4,626 nt of DNA from a virus. Taxonomy: Duplodnaviria; Heunggongvirae; Uroviricota; Caudoviricetes. Each line of letters opens with the position of its first letter. The stretch's first letter is position 1. The stretch is from the IMG/VR virus record IMGVR_UViG_2693429733_000016, one strand, 5' to 3'. Below are positions 1-4,626 of the stretch, piece after piece. The translations under genes were made by a program, and so were the position numbers. Below the pieces are notes generated by a model, which did not search any database, had not been told where the DNA came from, and saw only the letters and a list, made by a program, of their open reading frames with translations.

Positions 1-2
1 TG

Positions 3-197
3 CTGGCCAACACCTGCACCTGGACCTATCGCGGTGATGAGTGCGGTTATCACGGTCCGGCAGTCGCGGATGAATATGACCAGCCGACGTCCGATATCAC
101 GAAGGATAAGTGCAGCAAATGCCTGAGTGGTTGCAAGTTCCGCAATAACGTCGGCAATTTTGGCGGCTACCTTTCCATTAACAAACTTTCGCAGTAA
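3..197 (+). CDS. L: Tail tip protein L, C-terminal 64 codons (5' end lies upstream of the window)
   Basis: Open frame from window start to TAA at 195-197, translating to LANTCTWTYRGDECGYHGPAVADEYDQPTSDITKDKCSKCLSGCKFRNNVGNFGGYLSINKLSQ*. From memory this matches the C-terminus of lambda gpL, including the cysteine-rich tail. It lies immediately upstream of K, as in lambda. Not reported by the ORF track because the start is outside the window. Confidence 0.8.
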   Translation: MANTCTWTYRGDECGYHGPAVADEYDQPTSDITKDKCSKCLSGCKFRNNVGNFGGYLSINKLSQ

Positions 198-202
198 ATC
201 CC

Positions 203-946
203 ATGACAGAGACAGAATCAGCGATTCTGGCGCACGCCCGGCGATGTGCGCCAGCGGAGTCGTGCGGCTTCGTGGTGAGAACGCCGGAAGGGGAAAGATA
301 TTTTCCCTGCGTGAATATCTCCGGTGAGCCGGAGGCGTATTTCCGGATGTCGCCGGAGGACTGGCTGCGGGCAGAGATGCAGGGTGAGATTGTGGCGCTG
401 GTCCACAGCCACCCCGGTGGTCTGCCCTGGCTGAGTGAGGCCGACCGGCGGCTGCAGGTGCAGAGTGATTTGCCGTGGTGGCTGGTCTGCCGGGGGGCGA
501 TTCACAAGTTCCGCTGTGTGCCACATCTTACCGGGCGGCGCTTTGAGCACGGGGTGACGGACTGTTACACGCTGTTCCGGGATGCTTATCATCTGGCGGG
601 GATTGAGATGCCGGATTTTCATCGCGGGGATGACTGGTGGCGTCACGGTCAGAATCTCTATCTGGATAATCTGGAGGCCACAGGGCTGTATCAGGTGCCG
701 TTGTCAGCGGCGCAGCCGGGCGATGTGCTGCTGTGCTGTTTTGGTTCATCGGTGCCGAATCATGCCGCCATTTACTGTGGTGACGGTGAGCTGCTGCACC
801 ATATTCCTGAACAACTGAGCAAACGAGAGAGGTATACCGACAAATGGCAGCGACGCACACACTCCCTCTGGCGTCACCGGGCATGGCACGCATCTGCCTT
901 TACGGGGATTTGCAACGATTTGGCCGCCGCATCGACCTTCGTGTGA
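203..946 (+). CDS. K: Tail tip assembly protein K with two peptidase-like domains (N-terminal JAMM/MPN, C-terminal NlpC/P60); classical 199-aa form would start at the internal ATG 347
   Basis: 247-codon ORF starting 5 nt after the L stop. It contains a complete JAMM motif H68-x-H70-x7-S78-x2-D81 (HSHPGGLPWLSEAD) with an upstream E-x-C-G element (AESCGFVV) typical of prokaryotic JAB/MPN domains, followed by an NlpC/P60-like Cys (TDCY, codon 121, nt 563-565) and downstream His residues (NHAAIY, LLHH). Near-identical to lambda gpK as I recall it. The internal ATG at 347-349 is preceded by GGAGG (333-337) and gives exactly 199 codons. Confidence 0.85.
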   Translation: MTETESAILAHARRCAPAESCGFVVRTPEGERYFPCVNISGEPEAYFRMSPEDWLRAEMQGEIVALVHSHPGGLPWLSEADRRLQVQSDLPWWLVCRGAIHKFRCVPHLTGRRFEHGVTDCYTLFRDAYHLAGIEMPDFHRGDDWWRHGQNLYLDNLEATGLYQVPLSAAQPGDVLLCCFGSSVPNHAAIYCGDGELLHHIPEQLSKRERYTDKWQRRTHSLWRHRAWHASAFTGICNDLAAASTFV

Positions 947-1515
947 AAACGGGTGCCGAAGCCATCCGGGCGATGGCCACACAGCTCCCTGCGTTTCGTC
1001 AGAAGCTGAGCGACGGCTGGTATCAGGTGCGTATTGCCGGGCAGGATGTTAGCACGTCCGGATTAACGGCGCAGTTACATGAGGCTCTGCCTGACGGCGC
1101 TGTGATTCATATTGTTCCCAGAGTCGCCGGGGCCAAGTCAGGTGGTGTATTCCAGATTGTCCTGGGAGCAGCCGCCATTGCCGGATCATTCTTTACCGCC
1201 GGAGCCACCCTTGCAGCATGGGGGGCTGCCATTGGTGCCGGTGGTATGACCGGCATTCTGTTTTCTCTCGGTGCCAGTATGGTGCTCGGCGGTGTGGCTC
1301 AGATGCTGGCACCGAAAGCCAGAACTCCCCGCACACAGACAACGGATAACGGTAAGCAGAACACCTATTTCTCCTCACTGGATAACATGGTTGCCCAGGG
1401 CAATGTTCTGCCCGTTCTGTACGGTGAAATGCGCGTGGGGTCGCGGGTGGTCTCTCAGGAGATCAGCACGGCAGACGAAGGGGATGGTGGTCAGGTTGTG
1501 GTGATTGGTCGCTGA
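844..1515 (+). CDS. I: Tail tip assembly protein I (N-terminal ubiquitin-like region plus Gly/Ala-rich hydrophobic segment)
   Basis: 223-codon ORF MAATHTLPLASPGMARICLYGDLQRFGRRIDLRVKTGAEAIRAMATQLPAFRQKLSDGWYQVRIAG...GGQVVVIGR*, essentially the lambda gpI sequence as I recall it. Start overlaps the end of K by 103 nt in another frame. Purine-rich GAGAGAGG at 825-832 lies upstream of the ATG. Confidence 0.9.
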   Translation: MAATHTLPLASPGMARICLYGDLQRFGRRIDLRVKTGAEAIRAMATQLPAFRQKLSDGWYQVRIAGQDVSTSGLTAQLHEALPDGAVIHIVPRVAGAKSGGVFQIVLGAAAIAGSFFTAGATLAAWGAAIGAGGMTGILFSLGASMVLGGVAQMLAPKARTPRTQTTDNGKQNTYFSSLDNMVAQGNVLPVLYGEMRVGSRVVSQEISTADEGDGGQVVVIGR

Positions 1516-1532
1516 TGAAAAACGTTTATGTG

Positions 1533-1552
1533 AAACCGCCTCCGGGCGGTTT
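1533..1552 (+). promoter_or_regulatory. Perfect 8-bp stem / 4-nt loop hairpin (AAACCGCC-TCCG-GGCGGTTT) followed by a T-rich tract, in the I-J spacer; a possible RNA structure or weak intrinsic-terminator-like element
   Basis: Inverted repeat read directly. The second copy at 2405-2424 (AAATCGCC-TCCG-GGCGGTTT) keeps the pairing through a G-U wobble. The function is an inference. Confidence 0.4.
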
Positions 1553-1574
1553 TGTCGTTTATGGAGCGTGAGGA

Positions 1575-1861
1575 ATGGGTAAAGGCAGCAGTAAGGGGCA
1601 TACTCCGCGCGAAGCGAAGGACAACCTGAAGTCCACGCAGTTGCTGAGTGTGATCGATGCCATCAGCGAAGGGCCGATTGAAGGTCCGGTGGATGGATTA
1701 AAAAGCGTGCTGCTGAACAGTACGCCAGTGCTGGACAGTGAGGGGAATACCAACATCTCCGGCGTCACGGTGGTGTTCCGGGCCGGTGAGCAGGAGCAGA
1801 CACCGCCGGAGGGATTTGAATCCTCCGGCTCCGAGACGGTGCTGGGTACGGAAGTGAAATA
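1575..1861 (+). CDS. J: Host specificity protein J / central tail fibre, 5' fragment (codons 1-~95), cut off at the N-containing junction at 1862
   Basis: ATG at 1575 preceded by GGAG (1563-1566). Translation MGKGSSKGHTPREAKDNLKSTQLLSVIDAISEGPIEGPVDGLKSVLLNSTPVLDSEGNTNISGVTVVFRAGEQEQTPPEGFESSGSETVLGTEVK matches the lambda gpJ N-terminus. After nt 1861 the sequence switches to internal I sequence, so the track ORF 1575-1880 ends in out-of-frame junk. Confidence 0.85.
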
Positions 1862-1862
1862 N

Positions 1863-2386
1863 CGTTTCGTCAGAAGCTGAGCGACGGCTGGTATCAGGTG
1901 CGTATTGCCGGGCAGGATGTTAGCACGTCCGGATTAACGGCGCAGTTACATGAGGCTCTGCCTGACGGCGCTGTGATTCATATTGTTCCCAGAGTCGCCG
2001 GGGCCAAGTCAGGTGGTGTATTCCAGATTGTCCTGGGAGCAGCCGCCATTGCCGGATCATTCTTTACCGCCGGAGCCACCCTTGCAGCATGGGGGGCTGC
2101 CATTGGTGCCGGTGGTATGACCGGCATTCTGTTTTCTCTCGGTGCCAGTATGGTGCTCGGCGGTGTGGCTCAGATGCTGGCACCGAAAGCCAGAACTCCC
2201 CGCACACAGACAACGGATAACGGTAAGCAGAACACCTATTTCTCCTCACTGGATAACATGGTTGCCCAGGGCAATGTTATGCCTGTTCTGTATGGTGAAA
2301 TGCGCGTGGGGTCACGTGTGGTATCTCAGGAGATCAGCACGGCAGACGAAGGGGACGGTGGTCAGGTTGTGGTGATTGGTCGCTGA
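1863..2386 (+). CDS. I: Tail tip assembly protein I, 3' fragment of a second allele (5' 148 nt missing at the junction); corresponds to gpI codons ~50-223
   Basis: In-frame translation ...RQKLSDGWYQVRIAGQDVSTSGLTAQLHEALPDGAVIHIVPRVAGAKSGG...NVMPVLYGEMRVGSRVVSQEISTADEGDGGQVVVIGR* ending at TGA 2384-2386. It differs from copy 1 by one conservative change (L to M) and about six synonymous substitutions. The track ORF 1898-2386 is just the first internal Met of this fragment. Confidence 0.8.
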
Positions 2387-2446
2387 TGCAAAATGTTTTA
2401 TGTGAAATCGCCTCCGGGCGGTTTTATCGTTTATGGAGCATGACGA

Positions 2447-2836
2447 ATGGGTAAAGGCAGCAGTAAGGGGCATACCCCGCGCGAAGCGAAGGACAACCTG
2501 AAGTCCACGCAGTTGCTGAGTGTGATCGATGCCATCAGCGAAGGGCCGGTTGAAGGTCCGGTGGATGGATTAAAAAGCGTGCTGCTGAACAGTACGCCGG
2601 TGCTGGACAGTGAGGGGAATACCAACATCTCCGGCGTCACGGTGGTGTTCCGGGCAGGTGAGCAGGAGCAGTCACCGCCGGAGGGATTTGAATCCTCCGG
2701 CTCCGAGACGGTGCTGGGTACGGAAGTGAAATACGACACGCCGATCACCCGCGCCATCACGTCGGCAAACATCGACCGACTGCGCTTTACCTTCGGTGTG
2801 CAGGCACTGGTGGAAACCACCTCAAAGGGGGACCGG
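2447..2836 (+). CDS. J: Host specificity protein J, 5' fragment of the second allele (codons 1-130), running into the N gap
   Basis: ATG 2447 with GGAG upstream. Translation MGKGSSKGHTPREAKDNLKSTQLLSVIDAISEGPVEGPVDGLKSVLLNSTPVLDSEGNTNISGVTVVFRAGEQEQSPPEGFESSGSETVLGTEVKYDTPITRAITSANIDRLRFTFGVQALVETTSKGDR. Differs from copy 1 at I34V and T76S plus synonymous sites. Not in the ORF track because it ends in Ns. Confidence 0.85.
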
Positions 2837-2857
2837 NNNNNNNNNNNNNNNNNNNNN
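2837..2857. other. Run of 21 N: assembly or scaffold gap
   Basis: Literal n characters in the sequence. A single n also occurs at 1862. Confidence 0.99.
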
Positions 2858-2872
2858 TGGTCTGTGGTGCTG

Positions 2873-4626
2873 TCCGGCGTCACGGTGGTGTTCCGGGCCG
2901 GTGAGCAGGAGCAGACACCGCCGGAGGGATTTGAATCCTCCGGCTCCGAGACGGTGCTGGGTACGGAAGTGAAATATGACACGCCGATCACCCGGACCAT
3001 CACGTCGGCAAACATTGACCGACTGCGTTTTACCTTCGGTGTACAGGCACTGGTGGAAACCACCTCAAAGGGAGACAGGAATCCGTCTGAAGTTCGCCTG
3101 CTGGTTCAGATACAGCGTAACGGTGGCTGGGTGACGGAAAAAGACATCACCATTAAGGGCAAAACCACCTCGCAGTATCTGGCCTCGGTGGTGGTGGATA
3201 ACCTGCCGCCGCGCCCGTTTAATATCCGGATGCGCAGAATGACGCCGGACAGCACCACAGACCAGCTGCAGAACAAAACGCTCTGGTCGTCATACACCGA
3301 AATCATCGATGTGAAACAGTGCTACCCGAACACGGCACTGGTCGGCGTACAGGTGGATTCGGAGCAGTTCGGCAGCCAGCAGGTGAGCCGTAATTATCAT
3401 CTTCGCGGGCGCATTCTGCAGGTGCCGTCGAACTATAATCCGCAGACGCGGCAATACAGCGGTATCTGGGACGGAACGTTAAAACCGGCATACAGCAACA
3501 ACATGGCCTGGTGTCTGTGGGATATGCTGACCCATCCGCGCTATGGCATGGGGAAACGTCTTGGTGCGGCAGATGTGGATAAATGGGCGCTGTATGTCAT
3601 CGGCCAGTACTGCGACCAGTCGGTGCCGGATGGCTTTGGCGGCACGGAGCCGCGCATCATCTGTAACGCTTACCTGACCACACAGCGCAAGGCGTGGGAT
3701 GTGCTCAGTGATTTCTGCTCGGCGATGCGCTGTATGCCGGTATGGAACGGGCAGACGCTGACGTTCGTGCAGGACCGGCCATCAGATAAGGTGTGGACCT
3801 ATAACCGCAGTAATGTGGTGATGCCGGATGATGGCGCGCCGTTCCGCTACAGTTTCAGCGCCCTGAAAGACCGCCATAATGCCGTTGAGGTGAACTGGAT
3901 TGACCCGGATAACGGCTGGGAGACGGCGACAGAGCTTGTGGAGGATACGCAGGCCATTGCCCGTTACGGTCGTAACGTCACGAAAATGGATGCCTTTGGC
4001 TGTACCAGCCGGGGGCAGGCACATCGCGCCGGGCTGTGGCTGATTAAAACAGAACTGCTGGAAACGCAGACCGTGGACTTCAGCGTGGGCGCAGAAGGGC
4101 TTCGCCATGTGCCGGGCGATGTCATTGAAATCTGTGATGATGACTATGCCGGTATCAGCATCGGCGGGCGCGTGCTGGCGGTAAACAGCCAGACCCGGAC
4201 GCTGACGCTCGACCGTGAAATCACGCTGCCATCCTCCGGTACCACGCTGATAAGCCTGGTTGACGGAAGTGGCAATCCGATCAGCGTGGAGGTTCAGTCC
4301 GTCACCGACGGCGTGAAGGTGAAAGTGAGCCGTGTTCCTGACGGTGTTGCTGAATACAGCGTGTGGGGGCTGAAGCTGCCGACGCTGCGCCAGCGCCTGT
4401 TCCGCTGCGTGAGTATCCGTGAGAACGACGACGGCACGTATGCCATCACCGCCGTGCAGCATGTGCCGGAAAAAGAAGCCATCGTGGATAACGGGGCGCA
4501 CTTTGACGGCGACCAGAGCGGCACGGTGAATGGTGTCACGCCGCCAGCGGTGCAGCACCTGACTGCCGAAGTCACCGCAGACAGCGGGGAATATCAGGTG
4601 CTGGCGCGCTGGGACACGCCGAAGGT
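2873..4626 (+). CDS. J: Host specificity protein J / central tail fibre, main body (about codons 62-645), continuing past the window end; same allele as the 1575-1861 fragment
   Basis: Continuous open frame (codon phase 2873, 2876, ...) to the window edge. Translation SGVTVVFRAGEQEQTPPEGFESSGSETVLGTEVKYDTPITRTITSANIDRLRFTFGVQALVETTSKGDRNPSEVRLLVQIQRNGGWVTEKDITIKGKTTSQYLASVVVDNLPPRPFNIRMRRMTPDSTTDQLQNKTLWSSYTEIIDVKQCYPNTALVGVQVDSEQFGSQQVSRNYHLRGRILQVPSNYNPQTRQYSGIWDGTLKPAYSNNMAWCLWDMLTHPRYGMGKRLGAADVDKWALYVIGQYCDQSVPDGFGGTEPR... matches lambda gpJ. Nt 2873-2976 are identical to 1758-1861. Missed by the ORF track because there is no in-window start or stop. Confidence 0.9.

Follow-up and report, generated by a model that had tools for sequence, protein, structure and literature searches.

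The window analysed here, a 4,626-nt stretch that makes up the whole of the record shown, raises a narrow question: does a short inverted piece of the J gene, lying directly beside a run of Ns, mark the edge of a real rearrangement in a phage genome, or was it produced in the course of sequencing and assembly? The first-pass annotation described a chimeric junction, in which a short inverted repeat able to template a fold-back links codon 62 to an inverted fragment from further downstream in J, and this description holds. The junction is very probably a technical product, a fold-back chimeric read or molecule that was caught at a contig end in a mis-resolved scaffold, with no phage biology behind it.

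The record consists of three contigs, referred to below as A, B and C, which are separated by two runs of N (Table 1). Within these contigs the 5' part of J appears in three overlapping copies, and the non-redundant content of the window comes to 3,511 nt (contigs A and C merged) together with a 974-nt second allele. Only about 3,510 nt of each best-matching phage genome is covered by the window, as three pieces.

Table 1. Coordinates of the contigs, N runs, genes and junction features in the window.
Feature	Position	Strand	Remarks
Contig A	1-1861	+	Ends in J codon 96
Gene L, 3' end	3-197	+	Contig A; frame 3 reads LANTCTWTYRGDECGY...INKLSQ, then stop; aligns with phage 434 L
Gene K, tail tip assembly	203-946	+	Contig A; ORF of 247 aa; colinear with 434 K
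Tail gene I, full copy	844-1515	+	Contig A; ORF of 223 aa; homologues carry Pfam Lambda_tail_I
J codons 1-96	1575-1861	+	Contig A; ORF, colinear through codon 62
Single N	1862		Scaffold join of A and B; the sequence leaps from J codon 96 back to about position 992 (gene I)
Contig B	1863-2836	+	Apparent second allele: 3' part of I (stop 2384-2386) and J codons 1-130 (2447-2836)
Antisense ORF	2431-3063	-	210 aa, contains a run of X; not a gene
21-N scaffold gap	2837-2857		Between contigs B and C
Contig C	2858-4626	+	15 out-of-place bases, then J from 2873
Out-of-place bases (15)	2858-2872	+	Start of contig C, next to the 21-N gap; reverse complement of 3250-3264
Microhomology TCCGGCGTCA	2873-2882	+	J codons 62-65; common to colinear J and the inverted copy
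J codons 62-646	2873-4626	+	Genuine part of contig C; gapless alignment with phage 434 J
Source of the inverted fragment	3240-3264	+	Its first 10 nt, 3240-3249 (TGACGCCGGA), form the second arm of the 10-nt inverted repeat

Gene order, sequence and annotations place these genes in a lambda-like tail tip module, L-K-I-J, as do the Pfam assignments of the K protein and of the I and J homologues. A protein identical to that encoded by K is found on other contigs, where it carries the Pfam domains Prok-JAB and NLPC_P60. When contigs A and C are merged, the resulting sequence aligns end to end with the L-K-I-J region of phage 434, at 96.3% identity over 3,512 columns with a single gap, and J stays open for 645 codons without a stop. 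K and I overlap by 103 nt (844-946) in different reading frames, an arrangement that is likewise annotated in phage 434.

Two further features of the module were recorded. Between I and J lies a G+C-rich hairpin followed by a T run, present at both 1534-1560 and 2406-2432 (AAACCGCCTCCGGGCGGTTTTGTCGTTT); the phage 434 annotation gives the matching site as a terminator, and the two copies in the window differ at a few bases. The K protein is residue-for-residue identical on eight other contigs (L002-L009), and the DNA of contig A that spans K is about 96-98.6% identical to them, so the differences within K must be synonymous.

The relationships among the three contigs account for the redundancy of the record. 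From 2873 onwards, contig C (2873-2976) repeats positions 1758-1861 of contig A over 104 nt at 100% identity, and at the allele-specific bases 2899 and 2915 contig C agrees with contig A, both differing from contig B. This identity and the two shared SNPs indicate that A and C derive from one locus and were left unmerged; the colinear sequence that belongs upstream of contig C thus exists in the same record. Contig A ends one base ahead of a site at which the alleles differ (2977 T versus 2734 C), a point at which an assembler would cut a repeated region short.

Contig B (1863-2278) is identical to contig A (992-1407) for 416 nt, and the next 455 nt hold 18 mismatches and one indel, giving an overall identity of 97.8% over 871 nt. 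The boundary after the 416 identical nucleotides could be either a natural mosaic of two prophage alleles or a collapsed shared stretch that the assembler used twice. The overlap between contigs B and C, of about 204-207 nt, is about 95-95.6% identical, with 10 differing positions. Contig B is also 99% identical to natural viral contigs (for example L023 and L087) and, judged from its sequence, is a second, natural allele. Its end falls 2 nt past two allele-specific bases (2830 and 2834), in mid-sequence and at no obvious branch point; this end looks genuine, since some natural contigs align to its last base.

Taken as a scaffold, the record reads as three contigs derived from repeats in a sample that contained two or more lambdoid tail modules, and its N runs represent failed joins rather than missing sequence. 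The best explanation is that the sample held at least two slightly different copies of L-K-I-J, and that the assembler could not resolve the module because of them. In complete E. coli genomes (n=4,273), the part of J that was searched is present in a median of two copies and a maximum of seven. Redundant contig ends at N gaps are known from scaffolds of repeated prophages, a general artefact class with no curated family, and the window has the same organization: A overlaps C, A overlaps B and B overlaps C, and the non-redundant content is a normal L-K-I-J stretch.

The inverted copy itself is exact. Positions 2858-2882 (TGGTCTGTGGTGCTGTCCGGCGTCA) are, as first described, the reverse complement of 3240-3264, with 100% complementarity over 25 nt and 357 nt between the two arms. 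A chance origin is ruled out, as about 1e-8 exact 25-nt inverted pairs are expected in 4,626 nt and the probability of a chance match of the 15 out-of-place bases anywhere in the window is about 9e-6, and an adaptor or vector origin of these 15 nt is ruled out by their exact match to J itself. The source also encodes the peptide that had been assigned to it: MTPDSTTDQ is specified by 3239-3265, J codons 184-192.

The shared short repeat at the point of fusion was correctly noted, with its length put at 9 nt; the actual length is 10 nt. Contig C leaves colinear J at 2872, and the reverse-complement match to downstream J ends at 2883, which leaves TCCGGCGTCA common to both. With a microhomology of 10 nt, only 15 nt are out of place. 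Position 2873 is the first base of codon 62 (Ser, TCC), in agreement with the fusion point originally given as about codon 62. The same 10-mer is found at 1758-1767 and 2630-2639. The 9-nt motif CCGGCGTCA had been placed at 1759 and 2874, and both sites are present; a third, at 2631, had been missed, and the three occurrences reflect the three overlapping copies of J in the window.

The 10-nt inverted repeat has a G+C content of 70%. Both of its arms, with the partner within 600 nt downstream, occur in 102 of the 120 listed viral contigs that contain the colinear sequence at codon 62. The repeat is an ordinary conserved by-product of coding sequence, with nothing special about it. The 3.5-kb non-redundant region contains 23 inverted 10-mer pairs, eight of them within 500 nt.

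A colinear passage through J from about codon 50 to about codon 100 had been proposed at the outset as the sign of an assembly or chimeric-read artefact, and such a passage is present twice in the window itself, in contig A (codons 1-96) and in contig B (codons 1-130). The junction is absent from every external collection searched. A 120-nt query across the junction aligned at 8,300 places in the 4,273 complete E. coli genomes; the 15 out-of-place bases remained unaligned in these roughly 8,300 J copies, and the best matches listed all start at query base 16, the first base of the shared 10-nt motif. Alignments of the full contig C to complete E. coli genomes, the closest of which is 98.7% identical, likewise start at base 16.

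The same pattern is seen in viral sequences. The junction is absent from 101 phage records, whose alignments start at base 16 of contig C, and 104 of 106 long viral-contig alignments also start there, skipping the 15 out-of-place bases. No contig in the genome, viral and metagenome collections matched the junction in exact scans. The colinear 26-mer at codon 62, scanned as a positive control, was found in at least 120 viral contigs, and the junction is in none of the 120 natural J-bearing viral contigs listed. A second query represented the reciprocal junction that an inversion would create (...CATCTCCGGCGTCA/TTCTGCGCATCC..., the slash marking the join). It covered 80% or more of its length at zero places in the E. 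coli genomes, and exact scans of the genome, viral and metagenome contigs again gave no match.

These observations fit a known kind of library artefact. Fragmentation followed by end repair has been described as a source of chimeric reads in which a strand is fused, at a natural inverted repeat, to its own reverse complement (PMC10908179). As in the reads reported in that study after sonication and end repair, one side of the present junction is the normal strand and the other reverse-complements a neighbouring stretch of that molecule, with the point of fusion inside a short inverted repeat that occurs naturally, here 10 nt long. The foreign part of those reads sits at the read end in the manner of a soft clip; here it comprises 15 nt at a contig end. 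Two differences should be noted: the present case is known from an assembled record rather than from reads, and its arms are 357 nt apart, unlike the main short-range cases of that study. In sum of its structure, the junction has a nearby exact reverse complement and a natural microhomology, is short, lies at a contig end and is absent from independent assemblies.

A likely route to the fold-back chimera is as follows. A single-stranded minus-strand fragment of J, with its 3' end at TGACGCCGGA (the complement of 2873-2882), would snap back onto the inverted copy of the 10-mer located 357 nt away on the same strand, and a polymerase active in end repair, PCR or another amplification would then extend it as far as the fragment's 5' end. 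The opposite strand of such a product would read, from its 5' end, revcomp(3264..3250), then TCCGGCGTCA, then 2883 onward, which is exactly the sequence observed. The inverted part would stop at 25 nt because the fragment ends there, and the assembler or gap closer would have kept the overhanging read end because it lay at a repeat boundary beside a gap. Contig B, the other allele, would have been threaded between the unmerged contigs A and C.

The proposed fragment (3264->2873 on the minus strand) carries TCCGGCGTCA at nt 16-25 and TGACGCCGGA at its 3' end. When it is folded as single-stranded DNA, both the minimum free energy and the centroid structures are predicted to pair the two 10-mers and to leave a 15-nt 5' overhang; the ends were picked to suit the model, and the fold therefore speaks to compatibility and is no proof. 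An inter-molecular template switch during amplification would yield the same product. We infer both the molecular step, whether intramolecular fold-back or inter-molecular template switching, and the behaviour of the assembler.

A purely computational origin, in which the assembler or gap filler switched strand at the repeat (through a graph walk at k of about 25 or during gap closing) and no chimeric molecule existed, is improbable. It draws its appeal from the length of the inverted arm, which at exactly 25 nt matches a common k-mer size; in a graph built with k = 25, the reverse complement of 3240-3264 is the first genuine k-mer, and precisely there a side path would terminate. The junction also lies at a contig end beside an N gap, in a scaffold that is clearly mis-resolved. 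However, the true shared sequence is only 10 nt, far below the usual k and too short for a k-mer edge, which makes a graph-based strand switch less likely. The 14 junction-spanning 25-mers (starts 2859-2872) would moreover have to be present in the reads, which again calls for a chimeric read. Reading the assembler's k from the contig ends was also rejected: the 25-nt arm fits k = 25, but the end of contig B, 2 nt past a SNP, and the 416 identical nucleotides duplicated between A and B do not fit a simple k-mer graph or any single k. The genuine start of contig C at 2873 is 26 nt ahead of the first allele-specific base, 2899.

A genuine in vivo event is very unlikely. Under this reading, the 15 inverted bases would be the visible edge of a J gene rearranged in a phage subpopulation or a single lambdoid prophage copy, whether as a 357-bp inversion or as a fold-back duplication, by template switching at the conserved 10-bp repeat. 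The N gap masks the sequence 5' of 2858, where a longer inverted stretch, from a true inversion or a palindrome, may lie. Were the rearrangement real, the 10-bp repeat would be a recurrent J-inactivating hotspot.

Taken singly, each of the two forms of rearrangement is exceedingly improbable. If the 357 bp between the 10-bp repeats (2873-2882 and 3240-3249) had truly been inverted, contig C would begin with the reverse complement of the right-hand junction, and the observed sequence is formally equal to that product, as derived from the sequence; the sample also holds more than one copy of J. Against this, translation of the inverted form meets a stop 45 codons past the junction, truncating J at about 107 residues, and contig C itself runs through the right-hand site (3239/3240-3249/3250) without a break in colinearity. 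Repeats of 10 bp are very poor substrates for homologous recombination, and the window contains no recombinase gene or longer crossover site. The inversion that had been offered as an alternative thus lacks support: neither of the junctions it predicts was found in the roughly 8,300 E. coli J copies, the phage records or the three contig collections, and the inverted J runs into a stop.

Short inverted repeats can seed template-switch and fold-back rearrangements in vivo, and if replication switched template at the 10-bp repeat in a phage or prophage, the resulting inverted duplication or palindrome would have the same junction structure as the in vitro artefact. Such an event, however, would cost the phage its J gene and leave a large inverted duplication behind. 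None of the comparison sets contains it, its only evidence is the 15 nt at the start of a contig next to a gap, and the same record has a colinear copy identical to contig C.

An invertible tail-fibre switch was rejected: the phage Mu G/Gin and P1 C/Cin segments and the shufflons resemble the present case in having a piece flanked by inverted repeats in a tail or host-range gene, but next to them lies a serine or tyrosine recombinase, their specific crossover sites are longer, and both orientations are open and affect the C-terminal ends of tail fibres, whereas here there is a 10-bp repeat only, no recombinase gene within the 4.6-kb window (which holds only L, K, I and J), a stop in the inverted orientation, a location in the N-terminal part of J, and no second orientation among the related genomes searched.

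The antisense ORF that crosses the gap had been said to be explained by the junction, which is only partly right. The inverted piece does contain no stop in this frame, but colinear J by itself already offers 429 nt of open antisense frame. The ORF reaches 210 aa because the duplicated 5' regions of J in contigs B and C are joined by 21 in-frame Ns, which, as a multiple of 3, translate into seven X whatever the frame. VTPDSTTD appears in the translation of the inverted piece for no other reason than that this piece reverse-complements the sense codons of MTPDSTTDQ. The ORF was rejected as a gene and represents antisense frames of the B and C copies of J joined across the Ns.

The main importance of this locus lies in quality control. 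The inverted copy is really in the record and, with high confidence, is not a biological feature. Redundant or spurious positions number 1,115, comprising the second allele, the 104-nt unmerged overlap, the 22 Ns and the 15 chimeric bases. From such a record a gene caller would report false products, namely two truncated J genes, a partial I and the 210-aa antisense ORF with its run of X, and a search of scaffolds like this one for new ORFs, inversions or invertible tail-fibre switches would here return a false positive. Even if it were real, the junction would be merely an inactivating rearrangement of a well-known gene.

A separate inverted repeat was noted in J near the end of the record. 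It is imperfect, with two 19-nt arms (4544-4562 and 4594-4612) that are 84% complementary and lie 31 nt apart.
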